A stretch of 64,000 bases of DNA, from the NCBI RefSeq assembly GCF_058153355.1, contig NZ_CM177019.1; one strand, written 5' to 3'. Numbering within the stretch: position 1 is the first letter of the stretch; each line of letters begins with the position of its first letter. The translations under genes were made by a program, and so were the position numbers. Under the pieces are notes generated by a model, which worked only from the letters and a program-made list of their open reading frames with translations, did not search any database and had not been told where the DNA came from. Of the stretch, positions 1,680-61,443 are shown one piece after another.

Positions 1680-2612
1680 ATGAGGAACGGAATGATGAAT
1701 AATAAAGTCAGCTTCACTAACAGCAATAATCCAACCATCTCTTTGTCTGCAGTGATCTATTTCCCTCCAAAATTTGATGAAACCCGTCAGTATCCGGCAA
1801 TTGTGGTATCTCACCCAGGTGGGGGCGTTAAAGAGCAAACGGCCGGAACCTATGCCGAAAAACTGGCGGAAAAGGGATTTGTCACTATTGCTTATGACGC
1901 ATCTTATCAAGGTGAAAGCGGCGGCGAGCCGCGTCAGTTAGAAAACCCATACATTCGTACTGAAGACGTCAGTGCCGTGATTGATTACCTGACAACGCTT
2001 TCTTATGTCGACAATACCCGAATTGGTGCGATGGGAATTTGTGCCGGTGCAGGATATACAGCCAATGCTGCAATTCAGGATCGCCGCATCAAGGCCATCG
2101 CTACCGTTAGTGCGGTCAATATTGGTTCGATGTTCCGTAATGGTTGGGAAAACAATGTGAAATCTATTGATGCCCTACCATACGTTGACGCGGGTTCAAA
2201 CGCCCGAACCAGCGATATTAGCAGCGGAGAATACGCCACTATGCCACTGGCACCAATGAAGGAGTCCGATGCGCCGAACGAAGAACTGCGTCAGGCCTGG
2301 GAGTATTACCACACCCCTCGCGCGCAGTATCCAACAGCACCGGGTTACGCTACTTTGCGCAGCCTTAACCAGATTATTACCTATGATGCTTACCATATGG
2401 CGGAAGTGTACCTGACTCAGCCGATACAGATTGTGGCGGGCAGCCAGGCAGGGAGCAAATGGATGAGTGACGACCTGTACGATCGAGCATCAAGCCAGGA
2501 TAAACGCTATCACATTGTTGAAGGCGCAAACCATATGGATCTTTATGACGGCAAAGTCTATGTGGCTGAATCAATTTCAGTATTAGCTCCGTTCTTTGAG
2601 GAAACTCTGTAA
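1680..2612 (+). CDS. Alpha/beta-hydrolase (dienelactone-hydrolase-like), ycjY-family, copy 1
   Basis: 310-aa ORF; paralogous to the next gene (shared FPPKFDE..QYPAI..AYDAS.QGESGGEPR..RIGxxGxCxGxGY blocks). True start may be one of the ATGs at 1692-1697 (AGGAA upstream). Stop TAA overlaps the next ATG (taATG at 2610-2614). Confidence 0.8.
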   Translation: MRNGMMNNKVSFTNSNNPTISLSAVIYFPPKFDETRQYPAIVVSHPGGGVKEQTAGTYAEKLAEKGFVTIAYDASYQGESGGEPRQLENPYIRTEDVSAVIDYLTTLSYVDNTRIGAMGICAGAGYTANAAIQDRRIKAIATVSAVNIGSMFRNGWENNVKSIDALPYVDAGSNARTSDISSGEYATMPLAPMKESDAPNEELRQAWEYYHTPRAQYPTAPGYATLRSLNQIITYDAYHMAEVYLTQPIQIVAGSQAGSKWMSDDLYDRASSQDKRYHIVEGANHMDLYDGKVYVAESISVLAPFFEETL

Positions 2613-3551
2613 TGAAACATATTCAAATCCGTAATAGTGATATGGCCTGGCATATTGCTGCCAATATTCAGTTTCCACCAAATTTTGATGAGTCAAAACA
2701 GTATCCGGCGATTATCAGCGTCCATCCTTTTGGCAGTTGTAAGGAGCAGACGTCTGGCAATATCTATGGCAAGGCATTGGCTGAAAAAGGCTATGTCGTT
2801 CTCGCTTATGACGCCAGTTTCCAGGGAGAATCTGGTGGGGAGCCTCGTTGGATAGAAGATCCGACACAGCGCGTAGAGGATATTAGCCGTGTTATCGATT
2901 ATGCAGTAACTCTGCCATATGTTGATGCTGAACGCATTGGCGTGCTGGGTGTGTGTGTGGGGGGGGGGGGGTGGCTATGCCATTAATGCCGCGCTGACAG
3001 AAAAACGAATTAAAGCTGTAGTGAGTATTACGGGTGTTAATATCGGGCGTCTTTTTCGGGAAGGTTTCAGCAATTACGATCCGATTGGCGCATTGAATGC
3101 AATGGCGTCGCAACGAACCAAAGAGGCTCGTGGTGGAGAATTACAGATCAACGAATTACTTCCCGCCAGCCTGGATGCAGCAAAAGCCCATGGACTGACC
3201 GAACGCGATGTTTATGAAGCAACTGACTACTATAAAACACCACGCGGGCAACAACCGGGAGGTGCGACAAAAATGTTGTTCTCACATGCACAGAAAACGC
3301 TGGCCTGGGATGCCTTCGCATTTACTGAAGTGTTACTGACTCAGCCGGTGATGGTAGTAGTTGGTGAAAAAGTCGGTGCCTTCGGTGCTTATCGTGATGG
3401 ACTGGAAGTCTATGGCCGGGCGATGGTTTCGCAGGATCGTCAGTTAGTTTCGTTACCCGATTTCTCACATTATGAACTGTATGACAAACCGGAAGCAGTT
3501 CAGGAGGCGCTGGAAAAAGTTATTCCTTTTTTCAACACCCATCTGGGATAA
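2612..3551 (+). pseudogene. Alpha/beta-hydrolase, ycjY-family, copy 2, interrupted by a +1 frameshift in a 13-G homopolymer (2959-2971)
   Basis: ORF track splits it into 2612..2986 (ends ...GVCVGGGGWLCH*) and 2919..3551 (reads ...WVCVWGGGGGYAINAAL...). Removing one G gives a continuous ~312-aa frame, GVCVGGGGGYAINAALTEKRIK, collinear with copy 1. Confidence 0.75.
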
Positions 3552-45369: not shown

Positions 45370-46533
45370 TTACTTTTGATTGTCGATTCTGGTGAGAGCA
45401 ACCAGCAATGCCAGCGTATAACACACCGTAATTGCCAGACTCATTTTTAACAGTGTTTCTCCGCCAATTCCCGACAATGGCGCGGCTATACCGCCGAAGA
45501 CAAACATGCTCATCCCCATCAACGCAGACGCCGTTCCAGATTCCTGCGTCCCTACTGCACTCATAGCCTCTGCCCCGCCAACAGTGCCGATGCCGCTACA
45601 AAATGCGATGGTGAAAAATAATGCCACCAGTGCCGGAATGGGCAATTGTACCCATGCGCATAAGACCGTGAGCAATGCACACAAAATTGCCGCTATCAGG
45701 CCACCTCGCAACAATGTCATCGCGTTAATCCGTCGCGCCAGGCGCGAGAAGATCCATGAAGCAATGATAAGTCCGATGCCGTTAAGGCCAAACACCAGGC
45801 TAAATTGCATTGGACTAAAGCCAAATTCCTTCTGCAACACGAACGACGAAGAGCCGATATACGCAAACAAACCGGCCAGCATAAAACTTTGAATCAGGCA
45901 AAAGCGCATAAAAAGGCGGTTCTGCACCACGCTTCGTCCGGTTAATAGCAATGATGAGCCCCTTTTATTTTCTGGCAAGGTCTCATTAATAAATAACAGG
46001 CAGCCCAGCAACAGTACGGTGCTAATTTCAGCCATTACCCAGAATAAAGTGCGCCAGTCAAAAGTGCTAACAATGTACCCGCCCAGCACTGGCGACAACA
46101 CCGGTGCCAGGCCATTCACCGTCATTAACAGCGCAAAAAACTGGGTCAACGTTACTCCCTGATATTTGTCACGAGCAATAGAACGAGAGAGCACCGAACC
46201 ACCCGCCCCCGCGATCCCTTGAATAAAACGCCAGACCACCAGCCAGTAAATATTGTTCGTTGTCGCGCACAAAATGGAAGAAACAATAAACAATAGCAAC
46301 GACAAGATTAACGGACGTTTACGCCCTATTTTGTCGCTCAGAGGGCCAAATAACAGTTGTCCGACGCCAAGACCGATCAGTGATGCAGTCAGGGTTAATT
46401 GCGTTATGGTCGTGGTTGCCGCCAGTTGCTCAGACATCTCCGGCAAAGCCGGCAAATAAAGATCGGTACACATCGGGCCGATACCGGCTAAAAGACCAAG
46501 AATCAATGCCCATGAAAGAGAGACTCTAGCCAT
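45370..46533 (-). CDS. MFS transporter, 12-TM drug:H+ antiporter type (Bcr/CflA-like)
   Basis: 387-aa hydrophobic ORF with MFS signature region GPLSDKIGRKRP; last gene of a co-directional efflux cluster. Confidence 0.8.
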   Translation of the reverse strand: MARVSLSWALILGLLAGIGPMCTDLYLPALPEMSEQLAATTTITQLTLTASLIGLGVGQLLFGPLSDKIGRKRPLILSLLLFIVSSILCATTNNIYWLVVWRFIQGIAGAGGSVLSRSIARDKYQGVTLTQFFALLMTVNGLAPVLSPVLGGYIVSTFDWRTLFWVMAEISTVLLLGCLLFINETLPENKRGSSLLLTGRSVVQNRLFMRFCLIQSFMLAGLFAYIGSSSFVLQKEFGFSPMQFSLVFGLNGIGLIIASWIFSRLARRINAMTLLRGGLIAAILCALLTVLCAWVQLPIPALVALFFTIAFCSGIGTVGGAEAMSAVGTQESGTASALMGMSMFVFGGIAAPLSGIGGETLLKMSLAITVCYTLALLVALTRIDNQK

Positions 46534-46541
46534 ATTATTCC

Positions 46542-47915
46542 TTACTTGAGTGATGACATGCCGCCGCCCAGCGACTGCCAGAGCGTGATTCGGTTTGTAA
46601 AATCAGTCAGTTGCAGTGCCAGCAGCTCCTGCTGTGCGCTCCACAAGCTGCGCTGCGCCGTCAACACGGTCAGGTAATCACCAACACCCGCCTGATAGCG
46701 ACGCAAGCCAACATCGACCGTTTGTTGCTCAGCTTTAACATACTGGCGCTGTGCATCCAGTTGCTCTTCAAGCGTGGTCCGCCGCGCCAGTGCGTTAGCG
46801 ACATCTTTAAATGCGCTCTGAACGGTTTTTTCATAGGTGGCAATGAGCCCACGCTTTTGTGCTTCTGCGTAACGAAGCTGCGCCAGATTACTTCCGCCAG
46901 TGAACAGCGGTAATGTGACCGATGGTGCAAATGACCAGATCTGCATTCCGTGGCTGAACAACGACGACAATGCGTCACTGCCCACACCGGCACTGGCAGT
47001 CAGCGAAATCGTCGGGAAAAAGTTAGCCCGCGCCGCGCCAATATCTGCATTGGCGCTCTTCAAATTATGTTCCGCTTCCTGGATATCCGGGCGACGCAGC
47101 AGAACATCAGATGATACTCCCGCAGGAACCAGACTTATCATTTGTTCCGGCAGGCTTTCCAGTGTTCCCGGTAGCAGATTTTCCGCAAGCGTTGTACCTG
47201 CCAGTAAGTTCAGCGCATTTTTATCCTGCATCACTTGTGTCTGATAGCTGGCAACGCTGGCGCGCGCTTGCTGATAAACACTCATCGCCTCACTGACATC
47301 TGTCGCTGCCGCCGTGCCAACCTGTTGCTGGCGCTGGATAATTTTCAATGAGTTTTCTGCACTGGCCATCGTTTCTTTTGCCAGGGCCAGGTTGCTGTTA
47401 TCGGCCGCCAGTGTCAGCCAGGCGGTGCTGATTTCAGCAATCAGCGTTAAACGAGTGTTCTGGGCTGTAAATTCACTGGCAAGCCAGGTTTCCCGCGCCG
47501 CCCGAGATAAACTCTGATTACGACCAAACAGATCTAACGTATAACTGGACACCGTGCCGTCAGCCTCGGCAGTTGTTCCCGTACCATTCGCCAGCGAACG
47601 ACTGCGAGTCGAACTTAAGGCCGCATTCACCGTCGGAAATAACGACGCATTAGTTTGCCCATAGAGCGCCCGTGCTGAGTCAATATCAGCAATCGCTTTT
47701 TGCACATCGCGGTTACTGTTCAGTGCAATGGTTACTACCTGCTGCAATCGGGGATCGTGAATCACCTGCTGCCAGTCATGGCTGATTGCCTTCCCCTGGC
47801 CCTGTGCTCCCGGCAAGGTCGCCGGGATTGGGGATTCAGGCGTACTGTAGTGAGGATCGAGCGAGACACATCCCGCACTCAACAACACCAGAAAAATAAG
47901 AGAACGACGCAACAT
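46542..47915 (-). CDS. Outer-membrane efflux lipoprotein (NodT/OprM family)
   Basis: 457-aa ORF with lipobox (LLSAGCVSL) and OEP-type repeats. Confidence 0.85.
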   Translation of the reverse strand: MLRRSLIFLVLLSAGCVSLDPHYSTPESPIPATLPGAQGQGKAISHDWQQVIHDPRLQQVVTIALNSNRDVQKAIADIDSARALYGQTNASLFPTVNAALSSTRSRSLANGTGTTAEADGTVSSYTLDLFGRNQSLSRAARETWLASEFTAQNTRLTLIAEISTAWLTLAADNSNLALAKETMASAENSLKIIQRQQQVGTAAATDVSEAMSVYQQARASVASYQTQVMQDKNALNLLAGTTLAENLLPGTLESLPEQMISLVPAGVSSDVLLRRPDIQEAEHNLKSANADIGAARANFFPTISLTASAGVGSDALSSLFSHGMQIWSFAPSVTLPLFTGGSNLAQLRYAEAQKRGLIATYEKTVQSAFKDVANALARRTTLEEQLDAQRQYVKAEQQTVDVGLRRYQAGVGDYLTVLTAQRSLWSAQQELLALQLTDFTNRITLWQSLGGGMSSLK

Positions 47916-47918
47916 AAC

Positions 47919-50900
47919 TTACTCCTGACGGCGCGGTTTACCGGCAAACAAACGTTTCACCAGTACAAAAAACAGAGGAACGAAGAAAATGGCCAGTAAT
48001 GTAGCGGTCAGCGTGCCGCCAATAATGCCCGTACCAATGGCGATGCGGCTGTTCGCCCCTGCACCGGTTGCTATCGCCAGCGGCATTACCCCCGCAATAA
48101 ACGCCAGCGAGGTCATGATGATTGGGCGTAAACGAGTCTGCGCCGCGCGTAATGCCGCACGACTCAAGGAATAACCCTCTGCAACCGCCGCTTCAGCAAA
48201 TTCCACAATCAGAATGGCGTTTTTCGACGACAAGCCGATAGTAGTTAATAGCGCTACCTGGAAGTAAACGTCGTTGTTTAAATCACGCATCCAGGCCGCC
48301 AGCGCCGCGCCAAGAAGCCCCAGAGGGATCACCAGAATGACCGAGAACGGGACTGACCAGCTTTCGTACAGTGCTGCAAGGCAGAGGAAAACCACCAGAA
48401 TAGAAACTGCATACAGACTTAATGCCTGACCGCTCGCCAGTTTCTCCTGCAATGACAAACCACTCCAGGCCCAGGTTGTTCCCGCAGGAAGACTGTTTGC
48501 CAGTTCCTCCATTTTTGTCATTGCATCGCCGGAACTAAAGCCAGTCGCGTTTTCGCCCTGAATTTCATAGGCTGCCGAGCCGTTGTAGCGCACCAGTCTT
48601 TCCGGTCCATACTGCCAGCGGGTGGTCGCAAAAGCAGAGAATGGTGTCATGGCGTTATCGCTACCGCGCACAAACCATTTACCTAAGTCTGACGGCGCAG
48701 AACGAAATTCGCTGTCGCCCTGAATGTAGACTTTTTTCACACGACCACGGTCAATAAAGTCATTCACATAAGTACCGCCCCACGCACTGGACAGGGTGTC
48801 GGTGACATCATTCAAACTCAACCCTAATGACACCGCTTTATTGCTATCAATATCTACCTGCAATTGCGGCATTTGTGGCAAATCATTGGCGCGTACAGAA
48901 TGTAACTCCGGACTTTGATTCGCTTTTTCTATCAACTGATTACGCATTTGCAGCAGTGTTTCACGATCGGTTCCACCGTTAGCTAACAATTCAAACGTAA
49001 AACCATTGCTTTGGCCCAGCCCATCAACGGCTGGCGGCGTCATCGCAAATACCGTCGCATCACGAATTGTGCCCAGCTCTTTGGTAGCCCGTAGGGCGAT
49101 AGCCTGGGCGGTGTTTTCTGCCCCTTTACGTTGAGACCAGTTTTTCAACGAAACAAACGCCATCCCGGTGTTCTGTCCGCTGCCGCTAAAACTGAAACCA
49201 TCAACGGTAAAAATGACATCGGTATTTGCTTTCTCGTTAATCAGGAACCAGTCAACAATCTGGCGATTCACTTCTGCTGTACGGGCAGCGGTCGCCCCGG
49301 CCGGCAGCGTGTACTGCACCATGATTTCGCCCTGGTCTTCAGTGGGTAAGAAACTGCCCGGCAGTTTCCACATCATCAGGGCCATTCCACCACCCAGCAC
49401 GACATAAAGCCCCATCGTTCGGGCTGCACGGCGCAGGACATAAATTACGCCTCGCTGATATTTATCTTCAGTACGGCGGTAAAAGCGGTTAAATGCGCCG
49501 AAAAAGCCTTTTTTATGTGGCGGAACATGCTGGAGGACGGAACCGCACAGGGCGGGAGTCAAGGTCAATGCCACCACCACGGAAAGCAGCATTGCGGAGA
49601 TGATGGTGATGGAGAACTGACGATAAATTACGCCCGTAGATCCCCCAAAGAAGGCCATCGGCAGGAATACGGCTGACAACACCAGCGCAATGGCAACCAG
49701 TGCGCCAGAAATCTCGCCCATTGATTTTTCCGTGGCTTCACGCGCGGGCAACCCTTCGTCACGCATAATGCGTTCGACGTTCTCCACCACCACAATGGCA
49801 TCGTCCACCAGCAAGCCGATCGCCAGCACCATTGCAAACAACGTCAGGGTATTAATCGAATAGCCAAACAACGCAAGAACGCCGAATGTGCCCAGCCAAA
49901 CGACGGGGACAGCTAACGCCGGAATCAGTGTGGCACGCAGGTTTTGCAGGAATAAATACATCACGCAAACCACCAATACGATGGCTTCAAACAGCGTCTG
50001 AATTACGTCCTCTACGGAGATTTTAATAAATTCAGTGCTGTCTTTCGGGTATGCGATGTCGTATCCCTGCGGCATGTTCCGCTGGAATTCGGCAATCTTA
50101 TCCTTGACCAGCGTCGCCGTATTCAGCGCATTCGCACCGGGCGAAAGCATTACAGCAACCCCGGCAGACGGGTGACCGTTAAGTTTGCCGATAGCGGTAT
50201 AATCTTCACTGCCCATCTCAACGCGAGCCACATCTTTTATACGAACAACTGCGCCGTCTGACTGGCTTTTCACGATAATATTTTTGAACTGATCCACCGT
50301 CTGCAAGCGAGACTGCGCACGTACCGTTGCGGTCAGTTGCTGAGTATCCGGTGAAGGCAATGCCCCTATTTTCCCGGCAGTAACCTGCACGTTTTGCGCT
50401 TCAATAGCACTTTGCACGTCTGAAGGCATCAGCGAGTAAGACGCCAGTTTGGCCGGGTCGAGCCAGATGCGCATAGCGTATTCCGCGCCAAAGACTTGCA
50501 GACTCCCCACACCTTCAACACGCGCCAGGGGGTCCTGAACGTTACTGACCAGCCAGTCGGCGATATCCGAACTGGAGGCTTTGTCAGTGGTGTCATACAC
50601 GGCAGCAATCAGCAAAAAGTTGCTTTGTGATTTCTCCACCGTAACACCCGTTTGCTGCACTTCGCTGGGTAGGCGCGACTCCGCCTGCTGAATTTTATTC
50701 TGCACCTGAACCTGTGCAGTATCTGGATCGGTACCTTGTTCAAAGGTCACATTAATACTGACCGAACCATCAGAGCTACTGGTTGAGCTGAAATAGAGTA
50801 AATTATCAAGCCCAGTGAGTTGTTGCTCGATAACCTGAGTCACGCTGTTCTCCAGCGTTTCGGCAGAAGCACCAGTATAAGTGGCTGAAATTTTAATGGT

Positions 50901-51026
50901 CGGCGGTGCAACGTCAGGATATTGCGCGACGGGTAATGTGCGAATAGCCAGAATCCCCGCCAACATAATCAAAATGGCGATAACCCAGGCAAAGACCGGG
51001 CGGCGAACAAAAAAGCGCGAAAACAT
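47919..51026 (-). CDS. RND multidrug efflux permease (AcrB/HAE1 family)
   Basis: 1035-aa ORF MFSRFFVRRPVFAWVIAILIMLAGILAI...; size and N-terminus typical of AcrB-like pumps. Confidence 0.9.
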   Translation of the reverse strand: MFSRFFVRRPVFAWVIAILIMLAGILAIRTLPVAQYPDVAPPTIKISATYTGASAETLENSVTQVIEQQLTGLDNLLYFSSTSSSDGSVSINVTFEQGTDPDTAQVQVQNKIQQAESRLPSEVQQTGVTVEKSQSNFLLIAAVYDTTDKASSSDIADWLVSNVQDPLARVEGVGSLQVFGAEYAMRIWLDPAKLASYSLMPSDVQSAIEAQNVQVTAGKIGALPSPDTQQLTATVRAQSRLQTVDQFKNIIVKSQSDGAVVRIKDVARVEMGSEDYTAIGKLNGHPSAGVAVMLSPGANALNTATLVKDKIAEFQRNMPQGYDIAYPKDSTEFIKISVEDVIQTLFEAIVLVVCVMYLFLQNLRATLIPALAVPVVWLGTFGVLALFGYSINTLTLFAMVLAIGLLVDDAIVVVENVERIMRDEGLPAREATEKSMGEISGALVAIALVLSAVFLPMAFFGGSTGVIYRQFSITIISAMLLSVVVALTLTPALCGSVLQHVPPHKKGFFGAFNRFYRRTEDKYQRGVIYVLRRAARTMGLYVVLGGGMALMMWKLPGSFLPTEDQGEIMVQYTLPAGATAARTAEVNRQIVDWFLINEKANTDVIFTVDGFSFSGSGQNTGMAFVSLKNWSQRKGAENTAQAIALRATKELGTIRDATVFAMTPPAVDGLGQSNGFTFELLANGGTDRETLLQMRNQLIEKANQSPELHSVRANDLPQMPQLQVDIDSNKAVSLGLSLNDVTDTLSSAWGGTYVNDFIDRGRVKKVYIQGDSEFRSAPSDLGKWFVRGSDNAMTPFSAFATTRWQYGPERLVRYNGSAAYEIQGENATGFSSGDAMTKMEELANSLPAGTTWAWSGLSLQEKLASGQALSLYAVSILVVFLCLAALYESWSVPFSVILVIPLGLLGAALAAWMRDLNNDVYFQVALLTTIGLSSKNAILIVEFAEAAVAEGYSLSRAALRAAQTRLRPIIMTSLAFIAGVMPLAIATGAGANSRIAIGTGIIGGTLTATLLAIFFVPLFFVLVKRLFAGKPRRQE

Positions 51027-52147
51027 CAGGCATTGCCTCCATTAGCCTGAACTTCAACAGCCTTGACGGTCTGCCCTGAAGTGACTTTGGCAGAACCTTC
51101 AACAATCAGTCGGTCGCCGTTGTGCAGGCCGTTCAGCACCAGCCATTTATCACCATACGTTTCTCCCGTTTCGAGCGTTCGCTGCTCTACTTTATTGTCT
51201 TTATTCACCACCAGCGCAGTTGCATTGCCTTTAGCATCGCGCGTAACGCCCTGTTGAGGCGCGAGAATAGCGTTTTCCATCACGCCTTCATCGACACGAG
51301 CGCGAACAAACATTCCCGGTAATAACTGCTGTTGTGGATTGGGGAAAATTGCCCGTAATGTCACCGAACCGGTAGACTCATCCACCGCGACTTCGGTGAG
51401 TTCCAGACGCCCTTTTTCGCTGTAGGTTGTGCCATCTTCCAGAATAAGTGAGACGCTCATGGTGTCACTGTTGGTCGCCAGTGACTGTTTACGCAGACGT
51501 AATAAATCGACACTGGAGCGAGTGAGGTCGACATACATTGTATCCAGACCACGAATAGTCGTTAACGCTGTATCCTGCGACGCGGTCACCAGTGCGCCAG
51601 GGGTTACCGACGAAATACCAATACGCCCCGAAATCGGTGCGGTTACCGTGGTCCAGTCAAGATTAATGCGCGCAGTTTCCAGTGCGGCTTTTTTCGCCTC
51701 TACACTGGCTTTATCTTGTGCACAGGTAGACTGAGCATCATCAGCATCCTGTTGTGAAACACCATTCTCTTTCACCAGTCGGGCATAACGCTGCGCTTTC
51801 TGGCAATCGGCTTTTACCAGTGCCTGTGCTTGTTGTAATGCTGCCCGGGCTTCATTCCATGCAGCCTGATAACTGGCCGCATCAATCTGGTAGAGAGGCT
51901 GTCCAGCCTTGACCAGATCACCTTCCTTAAATAAGCGTTTCTGGATAATTCCCCCAACTTGCGGACGTACTTCAGCACTGAGCGCAGCACTGGTGCGTCC
52001 GGTTAATTCACTGACTACCGAAACCGGTTGAGATTTGAGCGTAACAACGCCGACTTCTGTTTCTGACGGGGATGAATTGTTACTTTGCGTATTATCACAA
52101 CCCGATAAGAGCAGCATTGCCACTACAGATGTTGCTATATACTTCAT
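51026..52147 (-). CDS. Periplasmic adaptor (membrane fusion protein, AcrA-like) of the RND pump
   Basis: ORF 51026..52180; preferred start MKYIATSVVAMLLLSGC (lipobox) at 52147, preceded by GGAG; stop overlaps the RND start. Confidence 0.85.
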   Translation of the reverse strand: MKYIATSVVAMLLLSGCDNTQSNNSSPSETEVGVVTLKSQPVSVVSELTGRTSAALSAEVRPQVGGIIQKRLFKEGDLVKAGQPLYQIDAASYQAAWNEARAALQQAQALVKADCQKAQRYARLVKENGVSQQDADDAQSTCAQDKASVEAKKAALETARINLDWTTVTAPISGRIGISSVTPGALVTASQDTALTTIRGLDTMYVDLTRSSVDLLRLRKQSLATNSDTMSVSLILEDGTTYSEKGRLELTEVAVDESTGSVTLRAIFPNPQQQLLPGMFVRARVDEGVMENAILAPQQGVTRDAKGNATALVVNKDNKVEQRTLETGETYGDKWLVLNGLHNGDRLIVEGSAKVTSGQTVKAVEVQANGGNA

Positions 52148-52174
52148 TATTTTCTCCAGGGTGAGAAATACCCT

Positions 52175-52275
52175 CCTCATTGAAATTAATGAGGATATGT
52201 CAGGGATATTCAGTTATAACGAACCCGCATCGCGAAATGAATTTCGCAATGAAATAAGGGGGATTAATATCCCCC
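52175..52275. promoter_or_regulatory. Cluster of three inverted repeats between the TetR gene and the MFP gene (candidate operators / pump promoter)
   Basis: tcctcatt-gaaatt-aatgagga (52174-52195), gcgaaat-ga-atttcgc (52232-52247), ggggga-ttaata-tccccc (52258-52275). Confidence 0.5.
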
Positions 52276-52295
52276 GCTATTGGTTAATTCTGTTC

Positions 52296-52862
52296 TTATT
52301 TATTTATCAACATACTAACAATATCCTGATATATTTCCTGCAGATGTTGTGGATCGCTTTTTTGCGGTGTTAAACGACGATAAACCGTACCTTCCATCAT
52401 GGTAGCAAACACTTCAACGCAGCAATGAATGTGATCGTCGCTAAGATGGGGATGCATTCTTTTCATATGTGCACAACCGTTAGCGAACATTCTGGCGTCA
52501 GCTTCTTCAAGCATTGCCATAACCCGCGGGTTGCGTGTGGCTTCTGCAGCCACTTCCAGCATCAGCGCGTCGTCGTCCTCATTTAAGGATTTACGCAAGG
52601 CAAGGACTTCCGGGAAGTGATCGGTACGCGCGTCAATGTCCATTTGGGCAATACGAAAGTCGATGATACGGCGAACCATCTCTTCAATAATGGCGTCTTT
52701 GTTGGCGAAGTAACGATATATCTGACCCACGCTAAGCTGAGCTTCGCTGGCAATTTGCGACATACTGGCGGCATGAAATCCGCAGCGACGAAAACACCGA
52801 CGGGCGGCGTTAATGATTTCATCCTGACGCTGTTTGTGGCGTATCTCCAGCTTGCTGGTCAT
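52296..52862 (-). CDS. TetR/AcrR-family transcriptional regulator
   Basis: ORF 52296..52961; preferred start MTSKLEIRHKQRQDEIINAARRCFRRCGFHAASMSQIASEAQLSVGQIYRYFANK (HTH near N-terminus), preceded by AGGAGA; co-directional with the pump genes. Confidence 0.75.
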   Translation of the reverse strand: MTSKLEIRHKQRQDEIINAARRCFRRCGFHAASMSQIASEAQLSVGQIYRYFANKDAIIEEMVRRIIDFRIAQMDIDARTDHFPEVLALRKSLNEDDDALMLEVAAEATRNPRVMAMLEEADARMFANGCAHMKRMHPHLSDDHIHCCVEVFATMMEGTVYRRLTPQKSDPQHLQEIYQDIVSMLINK

Positions 52863-52888
52863 TTCTGTCTCCTGGCCTATCACTTGGT

Positions 52889-52904
52889 GAGAATGATCAT
52901 TCTC
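52889..52904. promoter_or_regulatory. 16-bp perfect palindrome gagaatgatcattctc upstream of the TetR gene (candidate autoregulatory operator)
   Basis: Perfect dyad seen directly, 27 bp upstream of the preferred TetR start. Confidence 0.5.
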
Positions 52905-53339
52905 ATTTTTGCTAATTATACGTTTCTCCAAAGTAATGGAAAGTATTTTTATCTTATTCATGGTGCATATTCTGATAATGAAGAGATTGTGGAGATTCTG
53001 TGAAGATAGTTGACAATATTAAGTTGGGGTCAATTCATCAGAAAGGCAGCGACTTGTTGTCGCCAGTTCTGTTTTCATCATCAAACTTATCGGAGCTAAT
53101 ACGAATAGTTTCATAGTCAGATTCTATAAGATATTTCCCCAACCTACCCCTTGCAGGCGTCAAGAGTAGATAACGCAAAATGCTCTGTACCGCAGCTTCT
53201 CTCCGGTACAGAAAGCGCAACTATAGCCACCCACAGCCAGGTTGATTATAATAACCGTTTATCTGTTCGTACTGTTTACTAAAACGACGAATCGCCTGAT
53301 TTTCAGGCACAACAAGCATCAACAATAAGGATTAAAGCT

Positions 53340-54128
53340 ATGGGTTTTCTTTCCGGTAAGCGCATTCTGGTAACCGGTGTTGCCAGCAAACTGTCCATCG
53401 CCTACGGTATCGCTCAGGCGATGCACCGCGAAGGAGCTGAACTGGCATTCACCTACCAGAACGACAAACTGAAAGGCCGCGTAGAAGAATTTGCCGCTCA
53501 ATTGGGTTCTGACATCGTTCTGCAGTGCGATGTTGCAGAAGATGCCAGCATCGACACCATGTTCGCTGAACTGGGTAAAGTTTGGCCGAAATTTGACGGC
53601 TTTGTACATTCCATTGGTTTTGCACCGGGCGATCAGCTGGATGGTGACTATGTTAACGCCGTTACTCGTGAAGGCTTCAAAATTGCCCACGACATCAGCT
53701 CCTACAGCTTCGTTGCAATGGCAAAAGCTTGCCGCTCCATGCTGAATCCGGGCTCTGCCCTGCTGACCCTTTCCTACCTTGGCGCTGAGCGCGCTATCCC
53801 GAACTACAACGTTATGGGTCTGGCAAAAGCGTCTCTGGAAGCGAACGTGCGCTATATGGCGAACGCGATGGGTCCGGAAGGTGTGCGTGTTAACGCCATC
53901 TCTGCTGGTCCGATCCGTACTCTGGCGGCTTCCGGTATCAAAGACTTCCGCAAAATGCTGGCTCATTGCGAAGCCGTTACCCCGATTCGCCGTACCGTTA
54001 CTATTGAAGATGTGGGTAACTCTGCGGCATTCCTGTGCTCCGATCTCTCTGCCGGTATCTCCGGTGAAGTGGTCCACGTTGACGGCGGTTTCAGCATCGC
54101 TGCAATGAACGAACTCGAACTGAAATAA
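53340..54128 (+). CDS. fabI: Enoyl-ACP reductase (NADH), FabI
   Basis: 262-aa [43 protein letters not shown]...; recognised as E. coli FabI. Confidence 0.95.
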
Positions 54129-61414: not shown

Positions 61415-61443
61415 AAGCCACGGATATATCCGTGGCTTTTTAT
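61415..61443. terminator. Bidirectional rho-independent terminator between osmB and yciH
   Basis: aagccacggatatatccgtggctttttat: perfect hairpin flanked by A-run and T-run. Confidence 0.75.

Follow-up and report, generated by a model that had tools for sequence, protein, structure and literature searches.

An 18-bp palindrome upstream of eefR in Escherichia coli is very probably the operator of the TetR-family repressor EefR

Results and Discussion

Organization of the eefRABCD operon

The window, i.e., the whole stretch of 64,000 nucleotides that was analyzed, contains the five genes eefRABCD on its minus strand, flanked by fabI and sapF; eefR heads the co-directional run, which ends at sapF. 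eefR (52296..52862) codes for a TetR-family repressor of 188 residues, identified by a Pfam TetR_N match (E = 1.1e-15), the PGAP annotation, the lengths and N termini of homologs, and published work (PMC12482432); V45 and R50 lie in its recognition helix. eefA (51026..52147) codes for a periplasmic adaptor of 373 residues with Pfam HlyD-type domains, counted from the PGAP start at ATG 52147, and this ATG and the preceding GGAGAAAA are conserved. Next come eefB (47919..51026), for the RND inner-membrane transporter (ORF; PGAP annotation of a 99.6%-identical locus), eefC (46542..47915), for the outer-membrane channel (ORF; PGAP), and, as the last gene of the operon, eefD (45370..46533), for an MFS exporter (ORF; Pfam MFS_1, E = 7e-50; PGAP). 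The eefRABCD operon of E. coli has been described by Pugh et al. (PMC12817139) and by Shen et al. (2025, Virulence; PMC12482432).

Of 5426 complete E. coli genomes, 2037 have the 1.24-kb region around the palindromic site studied here, with no less than 99% identity. The remaining complete genomes have only the final 124 bp before fabI in common with the window, which indicates that the eef region is an accessory island.

The start codon of eefR

Loci for comparison were obtained by scanning one genome per species with an EefR alignment, which returned 55 loci. The peptide SVGQIYRY was the seed of this search, so that its conservation in the set is partly by construction.

A preliminary description of the window, made from the sequence alone, had favored a start of eefR at 52862 over the longer ORF beginning at 52961. 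This choice was borne out by the PGAP annotation, homologs, stop codons in orthologous loci, and the published clone. PGAP calls the 188-aa protein with its start at 52862; EefR homologs are mostly 186 to 194 aa long, and their alignment begins at the short start (MTSKLE). In-frame stops 2 to 21 codons upstream of the short ATG close the long ORF in 10/10 orthologous loci (L002-L011), and thus the start at 52862 stands. Across these loci the palindromic site is read in three frames (NENDHSH, *ERSFS, and MRTIVL). The published numbering of V45 and R50 is compatible only with the short form, and the active, purified EefR was cloned from ATGACCAGCAAGCTGGAG, that is, from ATG 52862 (PMC12482432). 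The Shine-Dalgarno sequence AGGAGA (52868..52873, minus strand) precedes this ATG, with a GGAG-like motif at the equivalent place in most orthologs.

If the ORF from 52961 were the real gene, the palindromic site would be coding sequence for NENDHSH. The frame is indeed open in the window, and one metagenomic long-form call, P0013, also has KNENDHSH. However, the likeness to P0013 is limited to the stretch where the -10 element and the palindrome are conserved as DNA, and KNENDHSH therefore reflects DNA-level conservation. There is no Shine-Dalgarno sequence ahead of 52961, nearly all homologs have the short form, and the comparison with homologs and orthologs revealed no conservation of the N-terminal 33 residues of the long ORF. 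Both in vitro and in vivo, the 188-aa form has activity (PMC12482432). With stops in all 10 orthologous loci and a site read in three frames, a coding role of the palindrome is extremely unlikely.

An 18-bp perfect palindrome between the eefR promoter and its ribosome-binding site

Direct reading of the window confirmed that a perfect 16-bp palindrome, GAGAATGATCATTCTC, occupies 52889-52904, as had been claimed. There is one further symmetric base on each side, and the full dyad is thus an 18-bp perfect palindrome, TGAGAATGATCATTCTCA, at 52888-52905 (9+9), with GATC at its center. The distance from the end of the 16-mer to the A of ATG 52862 is 27 bp, in agreement with the preliminary description, and AGGAGA is found 5 nt ahead of the ATG. 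On the minus strand, the order of elements is TTTCCA (52942-52937), 16 nt, TATAAT (52920-52915), 9 nt, and the dyad, followed by 14 nt, AGGAGA (52873-52868), 5 nt, and the ATG.

Such sites are rare. According to first-order Markov simulations of the window, 0.33 perfect palindrome with arms of at least 9 is expected per 64 kb, and 2 were observed. For the pattern TGAGAA-N6-TTCTCA with at most one mismatch, 0.07 occurrence is expected per window versus 2 found, both within eef regulatory DNA; the dyad at 52888-52905 is the sole perfect match in the 64 kb. This scarcity puts the probability of a chance occurrence in a given promoter region of about 100 bp below 1e-3, and chance is independently excluded by conservation of the dyad across genera, as detailed below. 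The other palindrome with arms of at least 9, and the only longer one in the window, is AAGCCACGGATATATCCGTGGCTT at 61415-61438, followed by a T-run (TTTT/TTTTT) between the convergent genes osmB and yciH; it looks like an ordinary bidirectional intrinsic terminator.

Conservation of the dyad and promoter across genera

TATAAT (52915..52920, minus strand) and TTTCCA (52937..52942, minus strand) are the predicted -10 and -35 elements of eefR, identified by a consensus scan and matching the consensus at 10 of their 12 positions taken together. TAT of the -10 is invariant or nearly so across genera, and CTTTCCA is kept in most orthologous promoters. A sigma-70 scan of the region yielded no enrichment over shuffles (5 found, 3.3 expected), and hence the promoter assignment rests on conservation.

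A dyad with at most one mismatch in the outer hexamers is found 20 to 26 bp upstream of the eefR start in every enterobacterial eefR-eefA-eefB locus (L002-L007 and L009-L011), and a site of the same class, with 0-1 mismatch, lies at the same distance upstream of the eefR-like gene of L008. The relatives that carry it comprise E. albertii, Pseudocitrobacter, Enterobacter, Cedecea, Kluyvera, a Klebsiella sp., and two MAGs. We aligned 11 promoter sequences from about eight genera. The best 18-column stretch of this alignment is exactly 52905-52888, and its invariant columns belong to the arms of the dyad, to the -10, and to the start codon. Mean column identity is 94% over all 18 columns of the dyad, 98% in its outer hexamers, which carry most of the conservation, and 86% in its central six positions, with 85% for the -10, 82% for the -35, and 58% for the rest of the promoter alignment. 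Most of the variation within the dyad affects the symmetric pairs 6/13, 7/12, and 9/10, often without a matching change in the other half. As judged from the aligned sequences, this pattern fits base-specific recognition of the outer arms by a protein rather than a nucleic-acid structure.

The dyad center (52895-52898) is a Dam site, GATC, that is kept in 8/11 of the aligned enterobacterial promoters and replaced elsewhere by GACC, GTTC, or AACGTT. In Enterobacter cloacae (L006, 1519-1536) and a related MAG (L007, 2463-2480), 11 bp between the -10 and the dyad (window 52906-52914) are missing, so that the first T of the operator doubles as the final T of TATAAT. Within the family, the placement of the operator with respect to the promoter is thus flexible.

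Published binding of EefR and operator alleles

This feature is already known: the operator was characterized experimentally and published in 2025 (PMC12482432). Purified EefR shifts a 129-bp fabI-eefR intergenic probe in EMSA, and the cold specific probe competes (PMC12482432). Deletion of the palindrome TGAGAACGATCATTCTCA eliminates the shift, and so does a change of a single arm base (TGAGAA to TGAGGA, MT-1; PMC12482432). Mutations of the EefR recognition helix abolish binding and derepress the operon, and PeefR-gfp is repressed by wild-type EefR and not by V45E or R50S (PMC12482432). [quoted passage not shown] Shen et al. also reported that the EefR motif is unlike any characterized TetR site and that the pump phenotypes require the eefA upstream sequence (PMC12482432). 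All four of their probe primers, and the cloning primers as well, are found without mismatch in the window; the probe corresponds to 52863-52991, with the dyad inside. The motif is spelled TGAGAAN5TTCTCA in the Discussion of PMC12482432 and TGAGAANNNNNNTTCTCA (N6) in its Results; N6 is the spacing found in the DNA and hence the correct one.

The EefR operator of E. coli ATCC 35218 shares with that of the window its locus, position, flanks, 18-bp length, and TGAGAA-N6-TTCTCA arms, and the strain has the same 188-aa EefR with V45 and R50. The two sites differ by one base: TGAGAACGATCATTCTCA of ATCC 35218 has C at eefR-sense position 7 and is symmetric at 17/18 positions, whereas the window has T (plus-strand A at 52899), and its operator copy is therefore perfectly symmetric. 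Alleles were counted with allele-specific 40-nt megablast queries and a 28-nt exact word, under which a central mismatch gives no match. Of the 5426 complete E. coli genomes, 705 gave the window's T-7 allele and 1289 the published C-7 allele, the latter including O157:H7 and 2 plasmid copies. The window thus has the minor allele. T at position 7 also occurs in E. albertii and in the TipR-type operator described below. The G-12 allele of E. coli SCPM-O-B-8794 (L002) was not found, with its own flanks, in any complete E. coli genome.

Function of the dyad

The dyad very probably serves as operator for the TetR-family repressor EefR, whose gene lies directly downstream; binding of EefR has been published for the one-base variant TGAGAACGATCATTCTCA. 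The preliminary description had suggested an autoregulatory operator. This suggestion proved sound, as the adjoining TetR gene is eefR itself and the published EMSA, palindrome mutants, and PeefR-gfp fusion bear on the C-7 variant of the same site (PMC12482432). It had also offered a binding site for a second regulator, for which we found no support.

Among candidate second regulators, Fur was considered because its 19-bp box is loosely alike, and a Dam-methylation-sensitive factor because of the central GATC. The best fit to the Fur consensus GATAATGATAATCATTATC is 13/19, and GATC is present in 8/11 of the aligned enterobacterial promoters. A score of 13/19 is nevertheless reached by 24 19-mers of the window, so that the dyad does not qualify as a Fur box, and no more than 12 positions agree in the commoner E. 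coli allele and 11 in the Kluyvera-type one. The invariant bases are TGAGAA/TTCTCA and not GATAAT, while the center becomes GACC, GTTC, or AACGTT in relatives. Deletion of eefR alone derepresses the operon 27- to 83-fold (PMC12482432). That the dyad serves mainly another regulator is therefore very unlikely.

We give an equally low probability to a role of the dyad mainly as RNA, namely, as a hairpin (7-bp stem, GAUC loop) with which the eefR leader would begin and which would make the mRNA more stable or modulate translation. The dyad would be transcribed if the start lies near 52908, and the predicted fold of the leader includes the hairpin. However, the leader is no more stable than shuffled sequences (z = -0.73; 40/200 shuffles as good), and the pairs 6/13, 7/12, and 9/10 are broken in orthologs with no compensating change; the outer arms do not covary but keep one sequence. 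In Enterobacter the dyad overlaps the -10 and would thus be only partly transcribed, and the protein binds the site directly (PMC12482432). An Rfam scan of 52050-53340 gave no match at E values up to 1.

An EefR operator would work as follows. A dimer of EefR would bind the two TGAGAA arms and repress the eefR promoter, and hence the co-transcribed eefRABCD genes, as shown for the one-base variant. Transcription is predicted to start near 52908, and bound EefR would span about +3 to +20. As the dyad lies 9 bp downstream of the conserved TATAAT, bound EefR would cover the predicted transcription start region, and it may prevent RNA polymerase from binding, from forming the open complex, or from escaping the promoter. 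Since the operon starts with eefR, such repression would form a negative autoregulatory loop in which EefABC and EefD are silenced by the same event. The pump would remain cryptic until a ligand or a mutation frees EefR. Among solved structures there is no close relative of EefR and no DNA complex that informs stoichiometry; the nearest by sequence is UidR (E = 1e-12).

This arrangement has classical counterparts. In TetR/tetO, AcrR/acrAB, and QacR/IR1, a homodimeric helix-turn-helix repressor is encoded beside its efflux target, a palindrome overlaps the promoter or transcription start, and regulation is negatively autoregulatory. A regulator-first, co-directional operon is less common than the divergent layout. 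EefR shares the arrangement of these pump repressors, but its operator sequence is unrelated to tetO, the AcrR site, and IR1.

Relationship with the operators of TipR-like repressors

TipR, the repressor of AcrAB-NodT in Caulobacter crescentus, acts via an 11-bp inverted repeat, 5′-TGAGAATGAAC-3′, as established with operator mutants and EMSA (PMC10754441; PLoS Biol 2023). Its consensus from ChIP-seq is WTGaGWMtGAWC (PMC10754441). The TipR half-site equals that of the window: ATGAGAATGATC (A-TGAGAATGATC) fits this consensus at 12/12 positions. TipR and EefR are both repressors of RND pumps, and EefA and EefB are about 58 to 60% identical to the Caulobacter pump proteins. EefR is 33% identical end to end (E = 2e-30) to the TetR protein encoded beside the identical inverted repeat in C. 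vibrioides T5M6, with LSVGQIYRYF identical in both; we infer that the latter gene is tipR from the organism, the synteny, and the inverted repeat.

The two operators differ in spacing. The TipR-type site consists of two abutting 11-bp arms, TGAGAATGAAC followed by GTTCATTCTCA, and measures 22 bp, whereas the site of the window is 18 bp long and its arms overlap in GATC. The 18-mer of the window corresponds to the TipR-type 22-mer minus the central ACGT, which brings the arms 4 bp nearer. The gene layouts differ as well: tipR is divergent from its pump genes, whereas in the window and in L002-L011, eefR and eefAB point the same way.

One and the same perfect palindrome of 22 bp, TGAGAATGAACGTTCATTCTCA, which corresponds to the published inverted repeat of TipR, separates EefR/TipR-like genes from divergently oriented EefAB-like genes in gamma- and alphaproteobacteria, among them the high-GC Caulobacter. 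The loci with TGAGAATGAACGTTCATTCTCA include those of Brenneria, Pectobacterium, Dickeya, several Caulobacter, Phenylobacterium, and Marinomonas spartinae, and their regulators have 33 to 48% identity to EefR. In our set, the 22-bp palindrome was located at 2351-2376 (L017), 2371-2396 (L023), 2377-2402 (L024), 2336-2357 (L027), 2343-2366 (L029), 2371-2394 (L031), 2345-2366 (L033/L035), 2364-2385 (L036), and 2398-2419 (L044). The divergent layout of regulator and pump genes occurs only in 22-bp loci. The Serratia and Rahnella sites read TGAGAA-N6-TTC[G/A]CA. It is tempting to speculate that N6 is the elementary spacing and that the 22-mer could accommodate two such sites, overlapping and shifted by 4 bp relative to each other.

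We tentatively propose that the EefR operator of E. coli derives, by a 4-bp contraction, from an ancient, near-invariant TGAGAATGAACGTTCATTCTCA that serves TipR-like repressors of pumps of the EefAB/AcrAB-NodT type in alpha-, beta-, and gammaproteobacteria, and that the contraction accompanied the move of the regulator from a divergent to an operon-first position; we hold this scenario to be somewhat less probable than its opposite. If it is true, the binding geometry would be altered, possibly with a single dimer on TGAGAA-N6-TTCTCA in Enterobacteriaceae, and possibly with a pair of dimers, staggered by 4 bp, on the 22-mer, where each would contact one TGAGAA and one inner ATGAA arm at the same N6 spacing. 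The inducers of TipR, nalidixic acid and cationic dyes, would then be candidate ligands of EefR.

Neither of the two EefR papers mentions TipR or Caulobacter (PMC12817139, PMC12482432). In the literature text, substrings of the 22-mer were found only in the EefR paper and in an unrelated one; the TipR paper prints just the 11-nt arm. Relative to the literature searched, the connection with TipR and the spacing difference are the sole parts that are new.

The EefR operator is the single known switch that silences a seventh, normally quiet RND multidrug pump, EefABC, together with the MFS exporter EefD in E. coli of phylogroups B2, D, E, F, and G, which are the lineages most strongly linked to infection. 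Mutations that disrupt the contact between EefR and its operator have been reported to cause multidrug resistance when AcrB is absent or inhibited. As this role in resistance is already published, the palindrome finding itself adds only annotation. The additions made here are modest, i.e., a minor, perfectly symmetric allele, conservation over many genera, and an operator family in common with Caulobacter TipR. The latter leads to concrete hypotheses on the inducers of EefR and on its tolerance of a 4-bp change in half-site spacing.

Other elements in eef regulatory DNA and related operons

A second candidate EefR operator, TGAGAAATACCCTCCTCA, is present at 52162-52179, just upstream of the eefA ribosome-binding site. 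It matches 11/12 outer-hexamer positions, with 0.07 such site expected per window. It is not conserved in E. coli SCPM or in E. albertii, its central bases misfit the TipR consensus, and its sense-strand mismatch, TGAGGA, is the MT-1 change that abolishes binding in the published EMSA. It lies within the published "nonspecific" probe (52148-52293), which did not compete at a 1- to 2-fold excess, so that weak binding is possible. This site is probably a chance match.

The spacer between eefR and eefA (52148-52295, 148 nt) contains three hairpins, at 52258-52275, 52228-52251, and 52174-52195, that recur in other genera; no Rfam match was obtained for them. The hairpin at 52258-52275 directly follows the eefR stop codon and resembles a terminator; in Pseudocitrobacter, Enterobacter, and Kluyvera it has a clear run of T. 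The hairpin at 52228-52251 has compensatory double changes in 6/9 pairs across 9 sequences, and in that at 52174-52195, CCTC pairs with GAGG just ahead of the eefA start region. Judging from these sequence features, the hairpins may serve as an attenuator or processing element by which the ratio of eefR to eefABCD is set.

Serratia and Erwinia each have an EefR-like gene with, upstream of it, a -10-like hexamer that abuts a dyad of the 18-bp type (L015, 2402-2419; L012, 2384-2401). No RND genes were found within 2.5 kb of these loci. The EefR-like gene is followed there directly by a gene for an MFS transporter with 48% identity to EefD (ORFs 2426-3055 and 3062-4252 in L015; 2471-3052 and 3049-4242 in L012). 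The eefRABCD operon may thus have arisen from a regulator-MFS pair by insertion of eefABC between its two members, or, conversely, the pair may result from a deletion.
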